Of a stretch of 64,000 nucleotides of DNA, positions 21,846 through 36,984 are shown piece by piece. Both the position numbers and the translations under genes were made by a program. The stretch is from contig HF993347.1 of assembly GCA_000433875.1 (NCBI GenBank), positions 22,450 to 86,449 on the forward strand, given 5' to 3'. The stretch is from Firmicutes bacterium CAG:884. Lineage in GTDB: Bacteria; Bacillota_I; Bacilli_A; RF39; UBA660. Below the pieces are notes generated by a model. That model did not search any database. It was given only the letters and a program-made list of their open reading frames with translations, and was not told where the DNA came from. Every line of letters starts with the position of its first letter. Within the stretch, counting starts at the first letter, position 1.

Positions 21846-22574
21846 AAACTTATTTCTGTTTTCATATACTTTCTTTACATAAACATACATAAAGTATCCA
21901 ATAACAACTAAAACTAAAAATATAATAACTAAATATACAATAGTCATATTAACCTTTGTTCCAATTGTTTTCATATTTAAAGCATAAACATCATTTGAAT
22001 TATACTTTAATAATATTTCTTTTTCTTTAGTATCTTTATCTATATACCAAGTATAGATATTTTTATTTTTATCAACACTATCAGCATTATTTTCGATAAC
22101 TTTATAAGGAAGTTCAACATTAATTGTACTATCCTCTATAACCATTCCAAGCATTTCATATCTTTCTTCTACTTTTGAACGATTTAAACCTTTAGCATTT
22201 ATAGTAACAATATTATTATCAACATCGACACTAAAATCATCATATATATACTTAATTAATAAATTGTAATTATAAGAAGTTGGTCCATCATATTTTCTTG
22301 ATACTCTAACACCTTCATAGTTTTTAGAAACGATATCAGTCATTTTATAATTTGAATAGCCAAGCTTATTTAAATAACTATAAGCATCAGCTCTTAAATC
22401 AGCACCAAAATCAAAAGTAGTTTCACCAAGTTCATCTTTAGCAGTAGATCCGCCAGGAAAATACTGAGCTAAATCAGCACTTTCAACAAACTTATTATCA
22501 TTAGTAATTTTCAAACTATAATCAATTTTACAGCCTGTAAGAAGAAGGCATAAAATAACTATTATTATTTTCAT
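21843..22574 (-). CDS. Lipoprotein with C-terminal TM anchor (last gene of the long minus-strand locus)
   Basis: Lipobox LLTGC. C-terminal hydrophobic helix then KKVYENRNKF. 4-nt overlap with the hydrolase gene upstream. Confidence 0.5.
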   Translation of the reverse strand: MKIIIVILCLLLTGCKIDYSLKITNDNKFVESADLAQYFPGGSTAKDELGETTFDFGADLRADAYSYLNKLGYSNYKMTDIVSKNYEGVRVSRKYDGPTSYNYNLLIKYIYDDFSVDVDNNIVTINAKGLNRSKVEERYEMLGMVIEDSTINVELPYKVIENNADSVDKNKNIYTWYIDKDTKEKEILLKYNSNDVYALNMKTIGTKVNMTIVYLVIIFLVLVVIGYFMYVYVKKVYENRNKF

Positions 22575-25500
22575 TTCAAATATCCCCTCTTCTCTATTTC
22601 AGACATTCTTATAACACTTGTAAATGAATGCTTGCCATCGCTTTCATATCTTCCTGTATCAATATTTATTGTTGAATATTTAACACCAGGATCACCACCT
22701 GAGCAATGAAGTATAACTATTGTTCTATTTTGTAAATCAACTTTATAAACAATACCGATATGTGAATATTTTTGCGGTTCGGTTTCACCAGCATAAACGG
22801 TTCCTGATTTATGATATAAAACATCACCTGGATTAATTAGCCCGCTTTCAACATATTTTGCAAGTGGTACACCATGTATTGGTTTATCATTTTCTTTATC
22901 AAATTCAACATAACAAGATTCTCCATTTTCACCACAAGTTAATTTCTTTTTTTCAATATATTCTTGCATAAATTGATATGTAAAGCCTCTAAACTTATGT
23001 TCTGTAGCATAATCATTAGGGAATGTAAAGTATCCATTAATAAATGCCCATCTTATATATTCGACACAATCAAGACCTATTTTTGGAAATCTTTCATACC
23101 TAGGATTAGTTTCTTGTTGACCCCAATTAGGATTAACACCAAGTTGACGCCACATACCACCTAATTGATAAGGTAAATTTATATCTTTTGTTTCATTACT
23201 ATGAACATATAACCAATAAGCAGCAGCAAGTACACCTTGTAATGTTCCTTTTCCATTAGCAGCAACATATTGTTCAAGAGATTGATTTAAAGCACCAGCC
23301 ATTGCATTAAATGATGAAGGATCACCAGAAATGTTTCCATCTTTATCTTTAATCGCACCAATTGTATTCATATTACGCCAAGAAGTAGCATTAAAATTTT
23401 CGCCATAAAAGAATTTTAATAATTCATATTGGTCAACAAAATACCAATTGTTTGCAAGATAAGATGCAACATTATATACAAGCCCTACATTTCCAGATAT
23501 AGTATAATTTGCAAAATTATCATCATACGGAATCATAACTTTGTGAGTATCATCATTATATAAATATCCAAGTTCATATGTAATAATTTTATTTCCTTTT
23601 GACTCCTTTACAGTTCCATCTTTACCAACATAAGTATATTCGGTTGGTGTAATATAACCATCAGCATCAACTAATAACTGTTCCTTAGTTGCATTGATAG
23701 CATCATATATTTCTTTACTTTCAGTATATGTATAATTATATTGTCCAGATGCATCTAATGTTTTGGTACCCCAACTAGTATTATTTAAAGCCCAAGTTCT
23801 TGCAGAAATAGCCATCGCATTTAAAAGATTTTTATTAACATTTAATCCCACATTATATTGAATTAACCCAGCAACATAAAAATCAACAGGAACTCTTATT
23901 GTTAAATGGCCTTTAACAGGAAGAGTAACTACACCAGTACAGCAATCAGTATAATTTGCTTCATATTCAGTTTGATCATCTAATAACTTTAACGGCGTTA
24001 CTAAATTAATTAAATTATATTTACTTGTTTCCTCAGGATCATAGAAATAATGTAATATTTGTTCATAATTCCAACCAAATTTATTTGCATAAACATCGGC
24101 TAAAACTTGTGACATTCCTCTATTGTGACCAGTAAAGTTTGAATAATCTTCTTCAGGATTATCTGTGTGACCGATATCAACACGACCTTCCTTAATTTCA
24201 CTAGGCGCAACTGGAATTGTCCTAAATGTATTATTTGCTTTTTCGTGCGGTAATATATTAACACTTATTGTTGAACAATCCCCAACAATACTCTTTACAT
24301 TTGCTTGATTTCTAAATTGTCTTGGAACAGATGTTGAACCACAATAATAAGGCGTTCCACCATTTTTACACTTACTTGCGGCCTTTTGCGCTTGTGCGGA
24401 TCCATCCTTACTAGGATTAGCAGCCATTCCAACTTTTTTATCATCATCCCCGTGACTTGCAGAACGACAAGTAACTTTACTACGACTTACATCATAATAA
24501 GGTACAAATTTGTCTACTTGTATATGAGTAACAGGATCATAAACTATTGGATTAGTACATATATATACACCTTCACAAGGGAAACTTGCATATTCTGTAA
24601 AATGTAATCCATAAGAATAAGATATTAGCATACCAGCTGTTTCTCTAGCAGCAAGCATATTAATTATATCATCACGATTTTTTGTAGTATCAATCTTAAA
24701 GTGTGTTTGGAAATCTTCACTATTTGGAACAATTTCACCAGAAGTACAATATTTTGTTCTATGAACATACTCATTTCGAGCAGCTATAGCCTGAGCTTTT
24801 AAAGCTTCAAAATTAGATCCAGTTGACATTTCATGACTAACAACGCCGGCTACATAAGTTTCCAAATCCATAGTTGAATATGGACCACTATAAGCATCCT
24901 CACCATCATATACTTTAACTACACACTCATTTTTATTTGTAAAAGTATAACTAGGATATACAGAATATAGATATTCTTTTAAAGATTTAGGTTCATATGT
25001 AAGAATAGATACCCCATCACATTGCGCAAATAAAAGTGAAGGATCATATCGTTTATTTCCAGAGACTAATTGATAATGTAAGTGATAACCAGATGAACAT
25101 CCAGTTGTTCCTTCAACACCAATTTTTTGTCCTTTCGTAACCTTTTCTCCAGGTTTAACACTAATGCTTTCCATATGCATATAGTATGAATAATATGTTT
25201 TACCGCCTAATTCGTGCTTTATACGAACGTAATTACCATTACTTCTACTATCCATTTTTCCACTTGAATCAACACAAGCTCCACCATTCCATTGATTAAA
25301 AATGTTAGGAATGCCATCTACTACTACATCAACAACTCCATCATAAACAGCTATTAAAGTTCTATCGTTAGCATAAGCATCAATTGCATAATGGGAATAG
25401 CCATTTCTATTAGCAGTAAATTGACTTGAAATACTACATTTAGCATTTAAATTAAATGGTGAAGTAAAGTTTTGTTTAACTTCTTCTGGTAATTGATATT

Positions 25501-26830
25501 CTGTTTGCGTTGTTGTTAGCGAATCACCATTAGAAAAATTAATTGTATCAATAACATCGTTATAGTAATAACTTGCAAATTCATTTCGATTATTATAAAT
25601 AGCATATGCTATCTCTATATTATTTTCTCTTTTGTTTGTTGAATTACAATCAAGACATTCAATATAATTTTCTGGAATATATTCATTCAATAAATATTTA
25701 GCGAATGTTTCATAATTCATATATTTTTGTACATAGTGAACTAAATAATTACTTCCACAATTCATATTAGGATCATATTCACTTGTGTCATAATAATCAC
25801 TAAACGTACCATTTTGTCTCATTGTATCTAATCTTTTCTTTAATTGTTGAGCATACCATCTTACAGTTTGCGTGTTATCATCTCTATAACCATTAATAGG
25901 TGCTCCAGAATAATATAATGTTTCATATCTAATAATTGTAGAATCGAGCACATCATATGTTACAGCGCCGTGTTTAGTTTGACCACTTATTTGAGCATTT
26001 GACAAATAACCTTTTTTATCAGTAACACAAGTACTAATTACCTTAGAACCAACTAAATTACCAGCAAGTCCTCTCATTTCTGGATCAGGTATACCAGTAT
26101 CAATTCCTAAAGAAATATCTGCAAGTTCATAAAAACTTTTTATTTCATATACAGGTAAAGATGTATATGATCTAGAACGAGCAACACCCATATTGGACAT
26201 TGTTTTATAACCATTTATAGCACCACTTATTACATTAGCATCACTTATAAACTTATTATAATGAATTGCTGCTGCAATCATTGAAATATCAAATTCTCCT
26301 TCAGTTAAAGAGACACCATTTTCAAGTGAATAATTGTTATAATTATCAGCAATTTTCTTTAAATCAGAAAAGAATGATTCATTAGCTGTCAAAGTAGATT
26401 TATAAAATGATGATACTACGGCATTAACATGTTTTGTACCAGATGGCGAAATAAAACTTGTACTAGTTGAACCGTTTTGTGAGGTATTATCTTTAACATT
26501 ATCAGTTAAGAAGTGACCTTTCCATTTTTCATTCGTAAAAATTGTTGCAATTAGTATCACACCAAAAAGCAAAATAGAAATTAAGCCACCAATGATAAAA
26601 AATTTAATTTTTTTTAACTTTCCTAAAAAGCCTAAACCAATTAAACCTTTTTTATTAGTAGTCGCTCCGCCTTCTGCAATACCAGAAGCACCTTCTTCAA
26701 TCTCTTCATACTTATTAACCATATCCGGATTATTTACAAAAGCTTGTTCATCATTTGTTAAATTTCCAGTAGTTTGTATTCTATTTTGATTATTTCGTAA
26801 TCTATTTATAGCATCATTATCTCGATTCAT
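22571..26830 (-). CDS. Giant (1419 aa) membrane-anchored peptidoglycan hydrolase: SpoIID/LytB-like lytic transglycosylase + M23 endopeptidase + NlpC/P60 domains
   Basis: N-terminal TM (FFIIGGLISILLFGVILIATIF). SpoIID-like segment METYVAGVVSHEMSTGSNFEALKAQAIAARNEY. M23 segment GNYVRIKHELGGKTYYSYYMHMESISVKPGEKVTKGQKIGVEGTTGCSSGYHLHYQL. C-terminal NlpC/P60-like segment GLDCVEYIRWAF…HIGIVYKV…ILHCSGG. Confidence 0.75.
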   Translation of the reverse strand: MNRDNDAINRLRNNQNRIQTTGNLTNDEQAFVNNPDMVNKYEEIEEGASGIAEGGATTNKKGLIGLGFLGKLKKIKFFIIGGLISILLFGVILIATIFTNEKWKGHFLTDNVKDNTSQNGSTSTSFISPSGTKHVNAVVSSFYKSTLTANESFFSDLKKIADNYNNYSLENGVSLTEGEFDISMIAAAIHYNKFISDANVISGAINGYKTMSNMGVARSRSYTSLPVYEIKSFYELADISLGIDTGIPDPEMRGLAGNLVGSKVISTCVTDKKGYLSNAQISGQTKHGAVTYDVLDSTIIRYETLYYSGAPINGYRDDNTQTVRWYAQQLKKRLDTMRQNGTFSDYYDTSEYDPNMNCGSNYLVHYVQKYMNYETFAKYLLNEYIPENYIECLDCNSTNKRENNIEIAYAIYNNRNEFASYYYNDVIDTINFSNGDSLTTTQTEYQLPEEVKQNFTSPFNLNAKCSISSQFTANRNGYSHYAIDAYANDRTLIAVYDGVVDVVVDGIPNIFNQWNGGACVDSSGKMDSRSNGNYVRIKHELGGKTYYSYYMHMESISVKPGEKVTKGQKIGVEGTTGCSSGYHLHYQLVSGNKRYDPSLLFAQCDGVSILTYEPKSLKEYLYSVYPSYTFTNKNECVVKVYDGEDAYSGPYSTMDLETYVAGVVSHEMSTGSNFEALKAQAIAARNEYVHRTKYCTSGEIVPNSEDFQTHFKIDTTKNRDDIINMLAARETAGMLISYSYGLHFTEYASFPCEGVYICTNPIVYDPVTHIQVDKFVPYYDVSRSKVTCRSASHGDDDKKVGMAANPSKDGSAQAQKAASKCKNGGTPYYCGSTSVPRQFRNQANVKSIVGDCSTISVNILPHEKANNTFRTIPVAPSEIKEGRVDIGHTDNPEEDYSNFTGHNRGMSQVLADVYANKFGWNYEQILHYFYDPEETSKYNLINLVTPLKLLDDQTEYEANYTDCCTGVVTLPVKGHLTIRVPVDFYVAGLIQYNVGLNVNKNLLNAMAISARTWALNNTSWGTKTLDASGQYNYTYTESKEIYDAINATKEQLLVDADGYITPTEYTYVGKDGTVKESKGNKIITYELGYLYNDDTHKVMIPYDDNFANYTISGNVGLVYNVASYLANNWYFVDQYELLKFFYGENFNATSWRNMNTIGAIKDKDGNISGDPSSFNAMAGALNQSLEQYVAANGKGTLQGVLAAAYWLYVHSNETKDINLPYQLGGMWRQLGVNPNWGQQETNPRYERFPKIGLDCVEYIRWAFINGYFTFPNDYATEHKFRGFTYQFMQEYIEKKKLTCGENGESCYVEFDKENDKPIHGVPLAKYVESGLINPGDVLYHKSGTVYAGETEPQKYSHIGIVYKVDLQNRTIVILHCSGGDPGVKYSTINIDTGRYESDGKHSFTSVIRMSEIEKRGYLK

Positions 26831-28394: not shown

Positions 28395-28461
28395 AAAATA
28401 ACCTCCTTAAACAAAATTATAATTTAAAGCTTATTATAAGTCAATAAAAAGAACTATATTT

Positions 28462-30246
28462 CTATAGTCCTCCACCGCTACCAAACGAATCAAGTTCAGC
28501 ATCAGTTAATATAACATTAATTTGCATTCTTCTACTACCACATACAAGTAATGCTTCACCTTGGTTATATCTTTTAATGCCTTCTTTTTCATTGTCATTT
28601 AAATCAATTAAGAAACCTAAATCTTCAACTGCTTGTTTCTTAAGACCCATTACAAGATAATATGAAGCATTATCGAATATAGCTTTACCGTGCATTAATA
28701 CATCAGGTGCACAGAAATCACTCGGTTGTTGAGTAATTATAATAGTACCTGTATTATATTTACGACTTCTTCTTTGAACTTGCGCTAGGAATTCAGCACC
28801 AAGTGCATTATTACCACCTAATAATACGTGAGCTTCATCAACAGCTAAAACAGTATTTACACTCTTATCAAGTGTTAAACTCCAAGCATATTTTAATATA
28901 TTAAAGAATAAAGCATTTCTTATATTACTATCAGAATTCATTAATTCTCTTATATTAAATACTATAAAGTTACTATTAGGTTTAATTGTAGTATGTCCAT
29001 CAAAATAATATTTTAATTCCTTAACAATTGGTCTTATTTTTAATTCCAATTTTTCAAGAATATCTTTCTCGTGAGATCTATCAGGCATTGATAATATCTT
29101 ACCTCTTACTGTAGCATATACATCTCTAAATGTTGGATAATCTTCCGATGTAAACTTTGTAAAATCAGTATCAAAATCAATTCCAAATCTTCTATATGTT
29201 TCTTGTATCATTTCACTATAAAGTGTTAATACATCTTCTTCAATACTAGGATCATAATACTTAATAAATGCTTTTTGCGTTTGTAAAGATCTTGTTAAAA
29301 CAGTATAACCCAAACCTTCTTTTAATTCATCTTCGTCACTATCAAGTACTATTTCAAGTGGATTAATCATACCATATTCTCCACCCTTACCTAAATCAAT
29401 GAAATCGCCACCATATAAGTTAGTCATTTCCTCAAGTTCACCTTCAGGGTCAATAACAACAACCTGGTGACCATTTCTTATATTAGCTCTTAATAATAAC
29501 TTGGCAGCTGTAGATTTACCAGATCCAGATGTACCTAATATAATCATATTTGCATTATTTCTATTGTGTTCCTTTTTAATTTGATATAAGAATTGGTTAA
29601 ATAATACAACACCACCGGAGAAATCAACACCAAGTAATGTTGACATTCCAGGATCTTTTATACTATCAAATATAAACGGATACATTGCTGCAAGCGTTGG
29701 TGAAGGTATTGGTGTACCAATTCTATTTTCTACATCTTGTTTTGGATATATTGGAAGCATTGATTTAAATACACTTTCCTGTTCAAATCTCAATGGAACA
29801 GCTGATAGTTGCATAGCTTCTAAGAAGTTTTTAACTTGTAATTTCTTAGCAACTAGTTCATCTTGTGTATCAGCAGTAATCATTATATGCATTTGAAAAT
29901 CAAATATTGCAGATTGATTAGCAGCTAACATTGAAATAAAATATTCAAGAGATTCATAATCTTGTCTTATTCTTTCTTGTAAAGTTTTATCTCTTTCATC
30001 TTGATATCTCATTTTTAAGTCTGCAATTTCTTTATTTAACATTTTAGTAATAACACTAAATGGTAAAGGTAAATGTTTTATTGCAATTTTAATTCCTGAC
30101 ATACTTGTTAAATTAGAAAGGAATCCTGGATTGATAAACTTAGGATAAGATACAACAGTTAAAATTGTTGCATACTTATCACTAATTACAATTTCCGCAC
30201 TTTTAAATTCTAACCCCTTTGGAGCAAGTTGACTTTTTAATTCCAT
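28462..30246 (-). CDS. VirB4/TrsE/TcpF-like conjugation-type ATPase, ATPase portion
   Basis: Walker A ILGTSGSGKSTAAKLL. Walker B VLAVDEAHVLLGG (DEAH). Motif C TIIITQQPSD. 594 aa. Start ATG overlaps the stop of the upstream N-terminal-domain ORF (TAATG). Confidence 0.75.
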   Translation of the reverse strand: MELKSQLAPKGLEFKSAEIVISDKYATILTVVSYPKFINPGFLSNLTSMSGIKIAIKHLPLPFSVITKMLNKEIADLKMRYQDERDKTLQERIRQDYESLEYFISMLAANQSAIFDFQMHIMITADTQDELVAKKLQVKNFLEAMQLSAVPLRFEQESVFKSMLPIYPKQDVENRIGTPIPSPTLAAMYPFIFDSIKDPGMSTLLGVDFSGGVVLFNQFLYQIKKEHNRNNANMIILGTSGSGKSTAAKLLLRANIRNGHQVVVIDPEGELEEMTNLYGGDFIDLGKGGEYGMINPLEIVLDSDEDELKEGLGYTVLTRSLQTQKAFIKYYDPSIEEDVLTLYSEMIQETYRRFGIDFDTDFTKFTSEDYPTFRDVYATVRGKILSMPDRSHEKDILEKLELKIRPIVKELKYYFDGHTTIKPNSNFIVFNIRELMNSDSNIRNALFFNILKYAWSLTLDKSVNTVLAVDEAHVLLGGNNALGAEFLAQVQRRSRKYNTGTIIITQQPSDFCAPDVLMHGKAIFDNASYYLVMGLKKQAVEDLGFLIDLNDNEKEGIKRYNQGEALLVCGSRRMQINVILTDAELDSFGSGGGL

Positions 30247-30821
30247 TAACTCATCACCGTCCCACCTTCAGTACGCATTCCTGCATTTAGGAAATTGTCA
30301 AGAAGTATTCTTAAATCATCATTTGTAGTTTGACTTGTATTCAAACCAGCAGATGCAAACTGATTAATTAAAGTTCTTAATCTTTTTTGTAAAACATCAT
30401 TATCTTTATCTCTAAATAGTAAATAGAATTCAGTATCTACAACACCATTAGCCATAAACATATTTGCTTTATTAATATCTTCCATAATCATTTTTTTAAT
30501 TCTTTGATCTGTTGATGAATTAAATGCAATTTGTAATTGTGACAAATATACATTAATATCAACAGGTCTTCCAGCTATAATTAGCCAGAATTCATAGTTT
30601 ATAACATTATAAACATTTTTTAAATTAGAAATGACAGCATCTTGTGAAGATGAATCCAAAATAAATATATTTTTTGGTTGTATTTTTAATCCTGTAACTT
30701 TTACATTATCGTCAAGTACAATCATTCCATTTGCAATACTTTTAATTGGAACAAAACTTTCTGTATATTTACTTTGTACCTTCGGTACCGGTTTCTTCGT
30801 TAGATCCTTTAAATTCTTCAC
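30246..30821 (-). CDS. VirB4-like N-terminal domain encoded as a separate ORF (split VirB4)
   Basis: 191 aa. Occupies the position and size of the VirB4/TcpF N-terminal membrane-associated domain. 1-nt overlap (TAATG, different frame) with the ATPase ORF. Confidence 0.5.
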   Translation of the reverse strand: MKNLKDLTKKPVPKVQSKYTESFVPIKSIANGMIVLDDNVKVTGLKIQPKNIFILDSSSQDAVISNLKNVYNVINYEFWLIIAGRPVDINVYLSQLQIAFNSSTDQRIKKMIMEDINKANMFMANGVVDTEFYLLFRDKDNDVLQKRLRTLINQFASAGLNTSQTTNDDLRILLDNFLNAGMRTEGGTVMS

Positions 30822-31113
30822 TGAAACACCATCCTCTCCATATAAATCTTTCTCTACTTGTAAAGAACCTATAAATTGATAAAATTACTGTTAACACATT
30901 ATGATAATGGGCAACAGGGAAAACAAGTATTATTGCAATTGCTCCAGGAGTAACAGCAATTACTGTTGGCCCTATATCAGATAAATTAAGTGTTAATAAT
31001 AATATCAAGGTAATTGATAGTCCAATTGCCAAAATAATTAAATCAAGGCCTCTAAATAGACCAAATATAAGCATTGATTTTTTGGAATTGGCTGGTATTA
31101 AAAATCCATTCAT
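30769..31113 (-). CDS. TcpE / Tn916-Orf17 / VirB3-like small membrane protein
   Basis: 114 aa, two TM helices (MLIFGLFRGLDLIILAIGLSITLILLL…). Lies immediately upstream of the VirB4-like gene, as VirB3-type proteins do. Confidence 0.45.
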   Translation of the reverse strand: MNGFLIPANSKKSMLIFGLFRGLDLIILAIGLSITLILLLTLNLSDIGPTVIAVTPGAIAIILVFPVAHYHNVLTVILSIYRFFTSRERFIWRGWCFSEEFKGSNEETGTEGTK

Positions 31114-31130
31114 ATATTATATCTCCCTTT

Positions 31131-33548
31131 TTATTTTCCGCCACCAGATCTGTGAGCTGCAGCAGCATTTTTTTCTTGCACATGACGTTTAGCTTCATCA
31201 GAATTAGAATATGTCTTACTAACATAGTCAGCACGGTCAGAATATGTTTTGGAATCACTAGCAACAAATGATTCAAGATAATCGGATGCCTTAGTATTAA
31301 TAGAAGCAAAAGTATGTCCACTTCCCATAACATTTGCATCACCAAATATCCTGATATTAGAATTAATATCTGAAACAATGTTCTCCGCAAGTTTAGCAGA
31401 TAATTCATCATGATAATTTCCAGAAGAATCTTTCTGTACCATCCACTCAGCAGCTGCTTGACCTTCAATGAATTTTTTCTTAATATTCAATCCACGCTCC
31501 CATTCTGATAAACGGTCAGCATACGCTCTTCTTTGATCGTTTGTCATACCAGAAACATCAGCAGATTTGGCAACGTTGTATGCAGTAAGTTCTGATTTAT
31601 AATCACCTATTGAATACCCTGTATTTTTGGTTTTTCTATATCTTCCAGTTGCAGCATCATATATTTGGAATGTTGCATCACCCGTTGTTGAATCTTTCGC
31701 AAATAATGCATCACCAGTTCCTTTGGAATTATAGAAATCTTTTATGCTTTTTGATGATGCAGAACTAAAAATTACGTCTGTTCCGTTTTTTTTCATCATT
31801 TCGGCACCCGCACGCGAATATAATGCATCAGTACTGCTCTTTATTCTAGAATTTGTATCAACAATTTGTTTATCTACATCTGCTCGAGTTAGAGCACCAG
31901 TTGCCATAGCCATTCGTGCACCCGCTCTTCCAATCAAGGTAGTACCAACATTCGTACCAGCGAGTCTACCACTACGAGCATAATTTTCTTTTACGTTACC
32001 AGTGATATCATGCATTGATTTAACACCCTTCTTAGCACCAGAAACACCTGAACGTAATGTACCACCGACACCGCCTGTAACCGCTCTTCCAAGAGCTTCA
32101 TTAAAACCAGCACCATTACGACGTGCACTACTATATGCCGCAACACCAGTTCCTAAGCCTGTTACTAAGCCAGCAGCTCCACCAACAGCCATACTTGCTA
32201 ATCTACTATCACCAATACGTTTAAGTGGATTTAAATTAAATTGGCCTTTAACATCAATACCAAATGCTTTACCAATTAAATCAGGAATTTGTTTAACAAA
32301 TAACAAAATACCTAATATCATAAATACTTGAAACCATACACTAGTATTTGTAGAACCAGCAACAGTATCTCCACTACCAAACAATTCATTAATTAGAAAA
32401 ACACCAAAATATACAGTTGCAACTCTAATAAAGAGATCAGTATAAGTTTTTAGTGATTCTTTAATCCACCAATTAAGTGGTTTTTTATCACTCTTTGTAT
32501 CACCAGGTTCAATATTTAATATAATTGGAATCGGTGCGATTATTTGCAAGAAACATAGTTTAACATTACGAATAGCAACATCAAAGCTAAAGCTTAAAAA
32601 TAGCAAAGCTAGAAAACCTCCAGCAATCGTTGAAACAATTGCAGTATAGTTAATTACATAAGAATTACCAACTATAGCTCTAATAATATGCGAACTTGAC
32701 AATAATCCAATATTTTGTCTTTGAGAAGCAATATAGAACATTGTACCTATTTCAACATCGCCAACACCTCGTACACTGCCAAGTGAATTATCGTTTCCAT
32801 TAAGTGCATTAACGCATTGAGCAATTTTATTACTTTCTATGATTATTGCATCGGTAGAAGATTTTCCACCTGGATCTACTGTAACTTCCTTATCACCAGA
32901 AGGAACAACATATTTTGTATAATATGTAAGCAAATTCGAACAAGGTGTTAAGGATTCTATTGCTGTATTAGGTCTAAAGAAAGCACTAAAAGTTAAAAAC
33001 CCAATAGATTGTCCATAAGAAGCAGCATTAAACGAATCATTATCATCATTTTTATTTGTTGTATTCATTCCCATAATAAGATTCCCAATAACGTTACTCT
33101 CCATAATATATGATTGTAAAGCAAATGCTCTATTAAATATCCAAGGAACTGACACAATTAAAGCTAGTGATATAGCAAGATTAGAAATCAACTTGCTTGT
33201 TCCCTTCTCCATTCCTTCTGGATTGATTATATATTTAACAAAAGAAAATGCTAATCTAAACAACATAAATATTCCAAGTAAAGTATATAATCTTTGCGAA
33301 GCACTTGCTAAATTTAAACTACTAAGTAACGAACTAGAAGAAAGTTCATAAAATATGCTATAAGCAAAAGCAGCAATAGAATAAACTTGGGTATCAATCC
33401 AAATAAGAAGTGATCTTAAAAGTCCATATAGTGTCTCATTAATATCATCAACCAAAAGACTACCAAGAGTATATGCCGCAACACCAACAGCACCTAGAAT
33501 TAATAATGCCGAAAAGCCTAAACCTTTATTATTAAATTTTTTTCTCAT
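31131..33548 (-). CDS. VirB6/TcpH/TrbL-like polytopic membrane protein with Gly/Ala-rich C-terminal domain
   Basis: 805 aa. At least 8 TM helices in the N-terminal ~470 aa. The hydrophilic C-terminal half is rich in G/A/S/T. Size and topology as for TcpH/Tn916 Orf15. Confidence 0.55.
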   Translation of the reverse strand: MRKKFNNKGLGFSALLILGAVGVAAYTLGSLLVDDINETLYGLLRSLLIWIDTQVYSIAAFAYSIFYELSSSSLLSSLNLASASQRLYTLLGIFMLFRLAFSFVKYIINPEGMEKGTSKLISNLAISLALIVSVPWIFNRAFALQSYIMESNVIGNLIMGMNTTNKNDDNDSFNAASYGQSIGFLTFSAFFRPNTAIESLTPCSNLLTYYTKYVVPSGDKEVTVDPGGKSSTDAIIIESNKIAQCVNALNGNDNSLGSVRGVGDVEIGTMFYIASQRQNIGLLSSSHIIRAIVGNSYVINYTAIVSTIAGGFLALLFLSFSFDVAIRNVKLCFLQIIAPIPIILNIEPGDTKSDKKPLNWWIKESLKTYTDLFIRVATVYFGVFLINELFGSGDTVAGSTNTSVWFQVFMILGILLFVKQIPDLIGKAFGIDVKGQFNLNPLKRIGDSRLASMAVGGAAGLVTGLGTGVAAYSSARRNGAGFNEALGRAVTGGVGGTLRSGVSGAKKGVKSMHDITGNVKENYARSGRLAGTNVGTTLIGRAGARMAMATGALTRADVDKQIVDTNSRIKSSTDALYSRAGAEMMKKNGTDVIFSSASSKSIKDFYNSKGTGDALFAKDSTTGDATFQIYDAATGRYRKTKNTGYSIGDYKSELTAYNVAKSADVSGMTNDQRRAYADRLSEWERGLNIKKKFIEGQAAAEWMVQKDSSGNYHDELSAKLAENIVSDINSNIRIFGDANVMGSGHTFASINTKASDYLESFVASDSKTYSDRADYVSKTYSNSDEAKRHVQEKNAAAAHRSGGGK

Positions 33549-33557
33549 AAATCCACC

Positions 33558-34265
33558 TTAACTTTCAAGACATTTTAATGCATCAACATTAACATATCTA
33601 TTTATCAAACTAATAACAATATTAACAATAGCAGGCGCTAATAAAACAACCACTAAAGCAATAATTCTTGTCTTTATATTTTTAAAAGCCTTCTTTTGAT
33701 CTAAGTCTTTTGAAATAACAACTTTGTATAAATCAATAACACAAAGAATAATAGTTAAACTAACACATCCTATTTGAACATACATCAAAAACTCATTCAT
33801 TACCTTAACAAAATCTTTGCTAATAAGATCACAATTATCAACAACAGTTAAATCTTTCCTATCCTTTATCTTATTTCCCGTAACAAACACATTTTTTTTA
33901 ATTTCTAATTCATTTTCTAATTTTAAACTAATCATTTTATTATCTTTTGCAAGATCTTCACCATATTTTATGGCATCATATAAATCTTCAGCATAGTTAG
34001 CGCAGTAATCATTAATTTCTACACCATCTTCGGTAGTTAATTCTTTAACAGTTCCATAACCACCACTCATTTTTTCTAAATCTCCTTGAGCATATTTTAT
34101 AATTGCAAGTCTCTCTGCAGAATTACACGCTCCAATAAACTTATCATAAGACTCATTAAGTTTAACAAATGCTTTGTTATATTGCTCAAGATAATTTTTT
34201 TTATCATCACCATAAACATTAAATATAAGTAAAAACGTAATTAAAAACAAAATAATTTTTTTCAT
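33558..34265 (-). CDS. Secreted protein of the 8-member paralog family with C-terminal VirB2/TrbC-like two-helix module (member 8, 235 aa)
   Basis: Signal peptide. Conserved C…ER.AI and DNCDLIS stalk. C-terminal VQIGCVSLTIILCVIDLYKVVISKDLDQKKAFKNIKTRIIALVVVLLAPAIVNIVISLINRY…C. Confidence 0.5.
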   Translation of the reverse strand: MKKIILFLITFLLIFNVYGDDKKNYLEQYNKAFVKLNESYDKFIGACNSAERLAIIKYAQGDLEKMSGGYGTVKELTTEDGVEINDYCANYAEDLYDAIKYGEDLAKDNKMISLKLENELEIKKNVFVTGNKIKDRKDLTVVDNCDLISKDFVKVMNEFLMYVQIGCVSLTIILCVIDLYKVVISKDLDQKKAFKNIKTRIIALVVVLLAPAIVNIVISLINRYVNVDALKCLES

Positions 34266-35877: not shown

Positions 35878-36984
35878 CTAACCTCCAGTTATTGCCTTAA
35901 CACATTCACCATTTACCTTTACATAAGAACCAGCTCTATATTTATCAACTAAATCCAAAACAATATTCACAAGTACCGGTAACAATAAGGTAAGCACTAA
36001 AATAATCATACGCTTTACTGAATTAGAAATCCATTTTTTAGTTGCGGAATCATCTTTGGCAGTTAAACACTTCATTCCATCCAAATAAATAAAGAATATA
36101 ACTAAAATAATACAAATTAATCTAAAGGTATCAAAAAAACTATTTAGTATTTTTCTGATATCTTCACTTATAGCATCACAAGCATTATCATCAGTTTTAA
36201 TATCAATCCAAGGAGTACTTAAGGCCGAATATCCAGCATAATAACTATTATATAATGATAAATAATTTAAAGTATTAACGTTTCCACCACCATCAACATA
36301 ATCAGATAAAATGTGATTTAACGCAACAACAGAATTATATAAATCAGATGTTATCTTAGCACATTCATCACTCAATTTTATATTTTTATCATTATATGTA
36401 AATACATTATCCCCATAAAAAGTATTGATTGAATTAAAATCATTATGACTAAAATAATTATAAATTGCAGACCTTTCAATTGAAGTACAAGAACCTTTTG
36501 CATACGCTTCAATATTTACATTCATCTGTTTCCTTGTTTCATCAGAAACACCACTTGATGCTGTTAGTTCCTTTGTATCATAATGTGTATATTTAATTGA
36601 ATTAATTTTATCAGAATTAATTATACCATCAACTTGACCAATTATTTCATTATTTTCATTTCGCACAATTTCATCAGCAGCAATCAAAAGATTAAATTGT
36701 TCTCTATCTCTTGCAATAAAATAATGTTTATTATTATCGCCAAAAAAAGTAATTTGGCCAAGAGTTGGACACACTAATTCACTAGGACTTGCTATTCTAT
36801 TATGATAATAAGCATATTTCTCACCATCTACAACAAAATTAGTAATAACTCCTTCTCCGGCTGAAGATATATAATAACCAAAATTTATTGTTTTTTCACC
36901 AGATTTATATGAACATGATATAGCATCATTACTAGCATATATATTTGGAATAAATAAACATAAAATTAATAATAAGATTTTCAT
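35878..36984 (-). CDS. Paralog family member 6 (368 aa)
   Basis: Signal peptide. C-terminal FRLICIILVIFFIYLDGMKCLTAKDDSATKKWISNSVKRMIILVLTLLLPVLVNIVLDLVDKY…C. Confidence 0.5.
   Translation of the reverse strand: MKILLLILCLFIPNIYASNDAISCSYKSGEKTINFGYYISSAGEGVITNFVVDGEKYAYYHNRIASPSELVCPTLGQITFFGDNNKHYFIARDREQFNLLIAADEIVRNENNEIIGQVDGIINSDKINSIKYTHYDTKELTASSGVSDETRKQMNVNIEAYAKGSCTSIERSAIYNYFSHNDFNSINTFYGDNVFTYNDKNIKLSDECAKITSDLYNSVVALNHILSDYVDGGGNVNTLNYLSLYNSYYAGYSALSTPWIDIKTDDNACDAISEDIRKILNSFFDTFRLICIILVIFFIYLDGMKCLTAKDDSATKKWISNSVKRMIILVLTLLLPVLVNIVLDLVDKYRAGSYVKVNGECVKAITGG

Follow-up and report, generated by a model that had tools for sequence, protein, structure and literature searches.

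The gene pair and its homology to one-piece VirB4 ATPases

To begin with, a stretch of 64,000 nucleotides of Firmicutes bacterium CAG:884 (GenBank assembly GCA_000433875.1, contig HF993347.1, positions 22,450 to 86,449), hereafter called the window, was analysed for a VirB4-like gene of a type IV secretion system (T4SS) that is carried on the minus strand as two open reading frames (ORFs). The upstream frame, ORF-N (30246..30821, minus strand), encodes 191 amino acids (aa) between a GTG start and a TAA stop, and the downstream frame, ORF-C (28462..30246, minus strand), encodes 594 aa from an ATG start. They meet in a TAATG stop/start overlap (30244..30248, minus strand), in which the TAA of ORF-N occupies 30248-30246 and the ATG of ORF-C 30246-30244, the final A of the former being the A of the latter (a 1-nt overlap at 30246). 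On the minus strand, the sequence across the junction is ...GGT GGG ACG GTG ATG AGT TAA TGG AA. Relative to ORF-N, ORF-C is read in the -1 frame, which is open for only 7 codons upstream of the ORF-C ATG. A shared A between two ORFs of 191 and 594 aa in different frames had been reported in the original prediction, and both the coordinates and the junction confirmed it. Stop/start overlaps are common in operons and unremarkable alone; the non-trivial point is the collinearity of both ORFs with one protein family.

The ATPase domain is encoded by ORF-C, in which a Walker A motif (GTSGSGKST; 29509..29535, minus strand; residues 238-246) and a Walker B region (LAVDEAH; 28828..28848, minus strand; residues 467-473) were found. 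The latter aligned with the Walker B region of 4AG5, the crystal structure of the C-terminal domain of VirB4 from Thermoanaerobacter pseudethanolicus, which was matched by residues 199-592 of ORF-C (E value of 9e-57). Moreover, the Pfam families PF19044 (49.4 bits, cut-off of 25.8) and PF12846 (48.5 bits) both scored above their cut-offs, and the motifs, the 4AG5 match and PF19044 together identified ORF-C as a VirB4 ATPase. Its scores stayed below the cut-offs of the curated models of full-length VirB4 (349 vs. 590 bits for NF045975, 165 vs. 325 for NF045971 and 81 vs. 643 for TIGR00929), because the first ~190 residues of these models are absent from ORF-C and because of its divergence. Residues 199-592 thus form the C-terminal ATPase domain and residues ~1-198 the second part of the N-terminal half, so that the break falls inside the N-terminal half, approximately halfway through it, and not between the N- and C-terminal domains.

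Judged by profile comparison, ORF-N is a homologue of the N-terminal ~180 residues of VirB4 ATPases made in one piece. On the NCBIfam model NF045975 (VirB4 of mycoplasma integrative and conjugative elements (ICEs), 894 positions), ORF-N matched profile positions 99-276 (E value of 6e-16) and ORF-C positions 294-891 (E value of 3e-104). Furthermore, fused VirB4 proteins were matched by a profile of the ORF-N family over residues ~3-220, with E values as low as 2e-24, and no short form was matched. The class of TrsD-like detached VirB4 N-modules was defined as stand-alone genes of ~180-300 aa placed directly 5′ of a ~600-aa VirB4 gene and 3′ of a VirB3/PrgI-like gene, and ORF-N was assigned to it by its gene order and by its homology to the N-terminus of fused VirB4. 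From these comparisons, ORF-N is read as a TrsD-like or ‘TraC-like’ protein that corresponds to the first module of the N-terminal half of VirB4 in detached form. The name ‘TraC-like’ is that of PF26593, a precomputed annotation that is marked as weak for the exact ORF-N protein and is carried unmarked by its orthologues; this membership rests on the precomputed annotations of the collection, and the assignment indicates that the family is already curated.

A weak Pfam match of ORF-N to MobC_2 (E value of 0.0023, below the cut-off) and an NCBIfam match to the MobA of Bacteroides (E value of 0.033) were treated as noise. Neither ORF had a predicted transmembrane segment. Moreover, a search of the PDB with the ORF-N profile gave nothing meaningful, a profile of fused homologues matched R388 TrwK in the PDB only over the C-terminal ATPase domain, and no solved structure was matched by the N-terminal half of monoderm VirB4 in sequence or profile searches.

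The 785-aa concatenation of both products aligned end to end (MAFFT) with 10 fused relatives of 775-892 aa, the fused representatives being 26-32% identical to it. The junction fell in a linker varying from 0 to ~60 aa, just before a conserved S-K-[LI]-A-P-x-x-L block, and no conserved segment was lost there, so that ORF-N and ORF-C are together collinear with one-piece VirB4. Of the original proposal that the 785 aa equal a full-length VirB4/TcpF, the VirB4 part is therefore borne out by this alignment and by the collinearity with NF045975, while TcpF was matched only weakly (NF052333, E value of 7.5e-5). Furthermore, a HMMER search with ORF-C as query over 1.84 billion representatives returned 4648 relatives, and lengths were compared in the 115 near-full-length proteins among the best 150. 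The N-terminal extension past the start of ORF-C was bimodal, measuring between -51 and +60 residues in the 71 short proteins, and between 177 and 500 in the 44 long ones, with no intermediate length among the 115.

Conservation of the split and the start of ORF-C

The search with ORF-N matched 4505 protein clusters. The best 120 matches were all stand-alone proteins (119 of 179-202 aa and one fragment of 150 aa), nearly all of them ending in FGTV-x-x-stop, that is, with the stop two residues after G-T-V. In addition, scanning species-representative genomes yielded at least 461 loci with an ORF-N relative, the best 80 of which belonged to metagenome-assembled genomes (MAGs) of uncultured gut Bacilli, Mollicutes or Tenericutes, at 57-93% identity. 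The gene was split in all of the 83 orthologous loci analysed (57-93% identity), as is consistent with a two-gene arrangement. An overlap of at least 1 nt was present in 79 of them: TAATG occurred in 44 loci, ATGA in 19 and an overlap of ~8-14 nt in ~14, while one nominal overlap of 41 nt was probably an artefact of start calling by the script. The remaining four lacked an overlap, three having a 1-nt gap (TAAtATG/TAGtATG) and one an in-frame stop directly abutting the ATG (TAAATG). Relative to ORF-N, the orthologues of ORF-C lay in the -1 frame in ~66 loci, in the +1 frame in ~16 and in frame in one.

These results bear on a further explanation raised originally, a recent frameshift (pseudogenisation), and likewise on an error of sequencing or assembly as the cause that broke up an intact virB4. 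One base gained or lost near the junction would join the frames, and isolated split virB4/trbE genes have been regarded as frameshifts elsewhere, as in TrbE part 1/part 2 of pNGR234a. Nevertheless, the orthologues here were split without exception down to 57% identity, and the position of the stop after G-T-V was conserved. The identical 191-aa protein was indexed in 850 blocks of a public assembly collection; 24 contigs with the identical ORF-N protein were read, and in all 5 loci for which the layout was shown the 191-aa gene ended at the nucleotide where the 594-aa gene starts. This identical layout in independent assemblies rules out a sequencing or assembly error. Moreover, when compared with L005, the closest relative, ORF-N differed at 5.8%, 3.1% and 20.9% of codon positions 1, 2 and 3, respectively, and ORF-C at 5.4%, 1.3% and 30.1%. 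The same bias towards the third position was found in more distant pairs, and both reading frames are thus under purifying selection. Neither relaxed selection nor a disruption absent from relatives, as expected of a pseudogene, was found. A pseudogene or artefact is therefore effectively excluded, and it was given the lowest probability of all the readings considered.

With regard to the start of ORF-C, a Shine-Dalgarno-like (SD-like) motif, GGGACGGTGAT (30253..30263, minus strand), lies 6 nt upstream of its ATG, within the last codons of ORF-N (Gly-Thr-Val-Met). In the orthologues, the codons of this motif were GGG in 61/77, ACG in 75/77 and GTG in 77/77, while the background use in the cluster was 5% of Gly codons for GGG, 7% of Thr codons for ACG and 6.6% of Val codons for GTG. 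Rare synonymous codons are thus kept at the motif, which reveals a constraint at the nucleotide level on top of that at the protein level. The predicted duplex of GGGACGGTGAT with the canonical Firmicute 16S tail, which was assumed and not observed, reached -15.6 kcal/mol, which places it with the strongest ones of the cluster. Furthermore, a conserved ATG or GTG start sits exactly at the onset of the M-[ED]-[LI]-K-S-Q-x-A-P-K-G-L stretch of the ORF-C orthologues. The pair hence has both an overlapping or abutting stop and start and a ribosome-binding site that lies within the upstream gene, as coupled pairs do, and the most economical reading of the sequence is that ORF-C would be initiated independently, in a manner coupled to the termination of ORF-N.

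Programmed frameshifting, put forward as well, or another recoding event near the TAATG would yield a single VirB4 of 785 aa, alone or beside the separate products. The -1 frame of ORF-C and the 7 open codons upstream of its ATG would be compatible with it, and frameshifting can in some cases, such as prfB and dnaX, be promoted by an SD-like element upstream. Nonetheless, no slippery heptamer (X XXY YYZ) was present in the last 45 nt of ORF-N, and the frame relation varied among the orthologues (-1, +1 or in frame), so that no single frameshift mechanism could be conserved. The conserved start and N-terminus begin, moreover, exactly at the start codon of ORF-C, preceded by the conserved ribosome-binding motif. 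Recoding is contradicted by these observations and is effectively excluded too, its probability being very small, if slightly above that of a pseudogene or artefact.

The two-gene form was also found far beyond the orthologues. Short VirB4 forms at 25-43% identity were selected, of which four had usable contigs (25-33% identity), whereas a fifth at 43% identity (P0122) stood on a 2-kb contig without upstream sequence and was left out. All four loci presented the order TrbL/VirB6, PrgI/VirB3, N-piece and short VirB4, with N-pieces of 213-295 aa. The same order (TrbL/VirB6, PrgI, N-piece of 227 aa and short VirB4 of 630 aa) was found in pCT72, a plasmid of Bacillus thuringiensis (NC_017205) typed as conjugative in PLSDB, in which the N-piece is annotated as ‘hypothetical protein’ and the VirB4 as a ‘DUF87’ protein. 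Overall, in these five distant loci (VirB4 of ~600 aa, 25-33% identity), the upstream genes all matched the ORF-N profile, with E values from 7e-21 to 1e-6. The pCT72 N-piece gave the lowest of these (7e-21) and was 29% identical to ORF-N (tblastn, E value of 5e-10). It differs from the pair of the window in being longer and plasmid-borne, in having a coupling protein gene upstream and in being separated from VirB4 by a 3-nt gap instead of overlapping it, and it shows the two-gene arrangement on a plasmid of a cultured bacterium. At another of the loci (L088, 3094-5830), a gene of 84 aa lies between the TraC-like N-piece (217 aa) and the VirB4 of 609 aa, and the pair is thus not always directly adjacent.

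A genuine two-gene VirB4, the first of the alternatives in the original prediction, is supported by the 83/83 split orthologous loci, by the stand-alone homologues and by the 5/5 distant loci, the translational coupling that it included being one that we infer. We consider it highly probable that the locus carries a bona fide two-gene VirB4, made up of a stand-alone TrsD-like ORF-N and a short VirB4, ORF-C.

Genes around the pair in the window

The window has a GC content of ~27% and long ORFs under genetic code 11. Along the direction of transcription, the genes of this monoderm-type T4SS operon encode two pilin-like proteins of 368 and 235 aa, proteins of 805 and 114 aa, ORF-N, ORF-C, the products of two small ORFs and a hydrolase of 1419 aa. 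The 114-aa product (30769..31113, minus strand) is a PrgI/VirB3-like small membrane protein, with a transmembrane-like hydrophobic stretch and no direct Pfam match. Its N-terminal (Y/F)(L/I)IPxN motif recurs in the ‘PrgI family’ protein of pCT72, in TrsC of the staphylococcal plasmid pSK41 and in a gene of locus L089 flagged as PF12666. The 3′ end of the 114-aa ORF and the start of ORF-N overlap by 53 nt in different frames (30769-30821, minus strand), an equivalent overlap of 38 nt being present at the orthologous loci L001-L004. The GTG start of ORF-N had a strong predicted SD pairing (-17.6 kcal/mol), in view of which the 53-nt overlap appears genuine.

Further upstream, the polytopic protein of 805 aa (31131..33548, minus strand) occupies the VirB6/TrbL position, with a weak match to NF045890 (E value of 8e-4), and its positional orthologues at L001-L004 matched PF19597 (TrbL_4) weakly. 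The protein of 235 aa (33558..34265, minus strand) has a C-terminal T4SS pilin-like (VirB2-like) domain, which scored 26.6 bits on PF18895, exactly at the cut-off, and matched NF045849 (E value of 5e-5), while a second pilin-like domain was weakly indicated in the protein of 368 aa (35878..36984, minus strand; NF045849, E value of 7e-4). Downstream of the pair, domain matches identified a cell-wall hydrolase of 1419 aa with M23 peptidase and SpoIID domains (22571..26830, minus strand), for which a VirB1-like role is suggested. It is unusually large, the M23 and SpoIID domains covering residues ~520-740 and leaving ~500 N-terminal and 680 C-terminal residues without assignment, and the SpoIID-domain proteins that follow VirB4 at L001-L004 have only 561-575 aa. 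Between the VirB4 gene and the next gene, of 189 aa, the window has just 67 nt (28395-28461), whereas five contigs with the identical ORF-N protein (L092-L096, 5475-6014) hold an extra gene of 179 aa there, which looks like small-scale variation in gene content within what is apparently one species-level lineage.

The T4SS genes are part of a run of ~30 kb of co-oriented ORFs (21843-51794, minus strand), most of which had no Pfam or NCBIfam match (e.g. those of 487, 427, 464, 333, 602 and 502 aa). The run also includes a Tad/Flp-like pilus gene set on the same strand, ~10 kb upstream of the T4SS (43372-47386). This set comprises a DUF5411 protein (46982-47386, minus strand), an RcpC/CpaB-like protein of 270 aa (46158-46970, minus strand; E value of 1.4e-4, below the cut-off) and a T2SSE/TadA-like ATPase of 356 aa (45079-46149, minus strand; PF00437, E value of 3e-28), followed by two ORFs (300 and 264 aa) without a Pfam match, possibly encoding TadB/C-like proteins. 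As VirB11 is absent from Gram-positive T4SSs according to a review (PMC12857230), the TadA-like ATPase more likely belongs to a separate pilus system than represents a VirB11. On both sides, the region is flanked by housekeeping genes, namely those for HrcA, LepA, a penicillin-binding protein, YabG, Rnf-like proteins, a P-type ATPase and a GH31 glycosidase.

Relation to known systems and meaning of the two-gene form

A search of the literature for split VirB4 as such found no direct description, the relevant statement being placed under the name TrsD. This protein has been described as a remote homologue of the VirB4 N-terminus (PMC12102498), occurs in the pGO1-type subclass of the mating-pair formation class MPF_FATA without an assigned function, and adjoins VirB4 in most Patescibacteria (PMC12102498, citing PMC4027160), while the TrsD homologues of Gracilibacteria are not associated with VirB4 (PMC12102498). 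The split of VirB4 is thus conserved and known from earlier work in systems of the Gram-positive type, and it is nothing unusual in this branch of monoderm T4SSs. In the Staphylococcus aureus plasmids pSK41/pGO1, the same order is formed by the VirB3-like TrsC (135 aa), TrsD (227 aa) and a short VirB4 (672 aa) annotated only as DUF87, although in pSK41 the TrsD and VirB4 genes stand 14 nt apart and those of the window overlap. The pairs of Patescibacteria (PMC12102498) likewise have a separate TrsD-like gene beside virB4 in a monoderm-type T4SS with PrgI/VirB3, VirB6 and VirB2-like genes, and often lack a coupling protein and a relaxase nearby, as in the window. They belong to another phylum, a non-conjugative role was proposed for them (PMC12102498), and they were likened to the pair by description and not by sequence.

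Two one-piece families, the mycoplasma-ICE VirB4 (Mbov_0397, NF045975) and CD1110 (NF045971), were the best-scoring curated models for both ORFs and are collinear with them, differing in that they are single polypeptides of 750-900 aa with a continuous linker of variable length at the split site. In addition, VirB3 and VirB4 are fused in some MPF_T systems (PMC4027160). These fusions likewise show that gene boundaries near the N-terminus of VirB4 are evolutionarily plastic, even though they join neighbouring genes, the opposite of a fission within VirB4.

According to the reading of a two-gene VirB4, the VirB6-like, PrgI/VirB3-like, ORF-N and ORF-C genes sit in this order in one operon, and ORF-C would be translated from its own start by means of the SD-like element that the last codons of ORF-N contain. 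With the UAAUG overlap, termination and reinitiation could be coupled, which would yield roughly equimolar products, and both polypeptides would associate non-covalently, rebuilding the N-terminal domain of VirB4. This domain (ORF-N and the first ~200 residues of ORF-C) may then anchor the hexameric ATPase to the membrane proteins of VirB3-like and VirB6-like type, as suggested by cryo-electron microscopy of the R388 system, in which the N-terminal domains of VirB4 connect each dimer's protomers, are embedded in the membrane and contact VirB3 and VirB8 (PMC12857230).

Several points weigh against this reading. First, the reassembly of the ORF-N and ORF-C products is a step that we infer, and the N-piece could have a role of its own instead of simply completing VirB4. 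Second, the link to TrsD is transitive: ORF-N had no match to the TrsD/TraD model NF041427 at an E value of 0.1 or below and is thus outside that family as defined by the model, and TrsD of pSK41 was not significant against the ORF-N profile (E values of 0.029 with hmmsearch and 0.14 with hhalign). The connection runs through intermediates, since the N-pieces of pCT72 (227 aa, E value of 3e-10) and L088 (217 aa, E value of 2e-8) matched NF041427, both below its cut-off of 200 bits, and also matched the N-terminal sections of VirB4 models in addition to the ORF-N profile. Moreover, the N-terminus of a fused protein (P0126) matched TrsD (E value of 2e-5). Third, the anti-SD sequence had to be assumed, as the 64-kb window carries no 16S gene. 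Fourth, the AlphaFold2 model of ORF-N (alignment of 22 sequences) had a mean predicted local distance difference test (pLDDT) score of 46, and that of the 785-aa concatenation as a single sequence one of 35, both too low to place the split in three dimensions. Finally, as regards the activity of the system, neither a VirD4-like coupling protein nor a relaxase was detected in the window when most ORFs with 100 aa or more were scanned against Pfam and when three coupling proteins and the relaxase of pSK41 served as tblastn queries, the sole match being the P-loop of ORF-C. A coupling protein was present within ~6 kb downstream of VirB4 in 32 of the 56 orthologous loci with enough flank. Possible explanations are that the system of the window is a remnant, that its partners are encoded in another part of the genome, or that it does not serve conjugation, as has been proposed for Patescibacteria.

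The main live rival takes up the first of these points and regards ORF-N as an independent accessory protein (an adaptor, a regulator or a membrane tether) descended from the N-terminal module of VirB4. It would agree with the faster evolution of ORF-N than of ORF-C (~66% vs. 78% identity to the same orthologues), with the gene of 84 aa that separates the N-piece from VirB4 at L088, and with the absence of an assigned function for TrsD, whose homologues in Gracilibacteria stand apart from VirB4 (PMC12102498). However, the adjacency was strict in the orthologues, with stop and start overlapping or nearly abutting in 83/83 loci. Furthermore, the lengths of VirB4 were bimodal, the short forms beginning at the linker where the fused forms continue, and the fused relatives keep the same module in the same place. 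An independent role is hence considered improbable, if clearly less remote than recoding or a pseudogene.

For annotation, the two-gene VirB4 means that neither a pseudogene nor a frameshift flag is appropriate for split genes of this kind, and that the small upstream ‘hypothetical protein’ should be recognized as the detached, TrsD-like N-module of VirB4. The family is very abundant in MAGs of uncultured Bacilli and Mollicutes-like bacteria from human and animal guts (at least 461 species representatives and 4505 protein clusters), so that its correct annotation affects the counts of conjugative elements in gut metagenomes. Moreover, the site at which the gene is naturally divided marks a boundary between domains in the N-terminal half of VirB4, a poorly characterized region, and could guide the design of constructs for structural work on monoderm VirB4.

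As for the history of the split, short and long forms were interleaved in a crude neighbour-joining tree of 116 representatives, requiring 21 parsimony changes, a tree that was built on BLOSUM distances with a midpoint root and may include some gene calls that are fragments. It suggests that VirB4 was split and rejoined repeatedly and is too weak to establish this. Tentatively, the linker in the N-terminal half might be a recurrent point of fission and fusion, at which monoderm-type VirB4 proteins would have switched between one gene and two genes several times, a scenario to which we give less than even chances. If it is true, the N-module would be an autonomous, exchangeable subunit, possibly with a stoichiometry or a choice of partners unlike those of the ATPase hexamer, and the two-gene state in the clade of gut Bacilli would have been stabilized by a ribosome-binding site under synonymous-site constraint.

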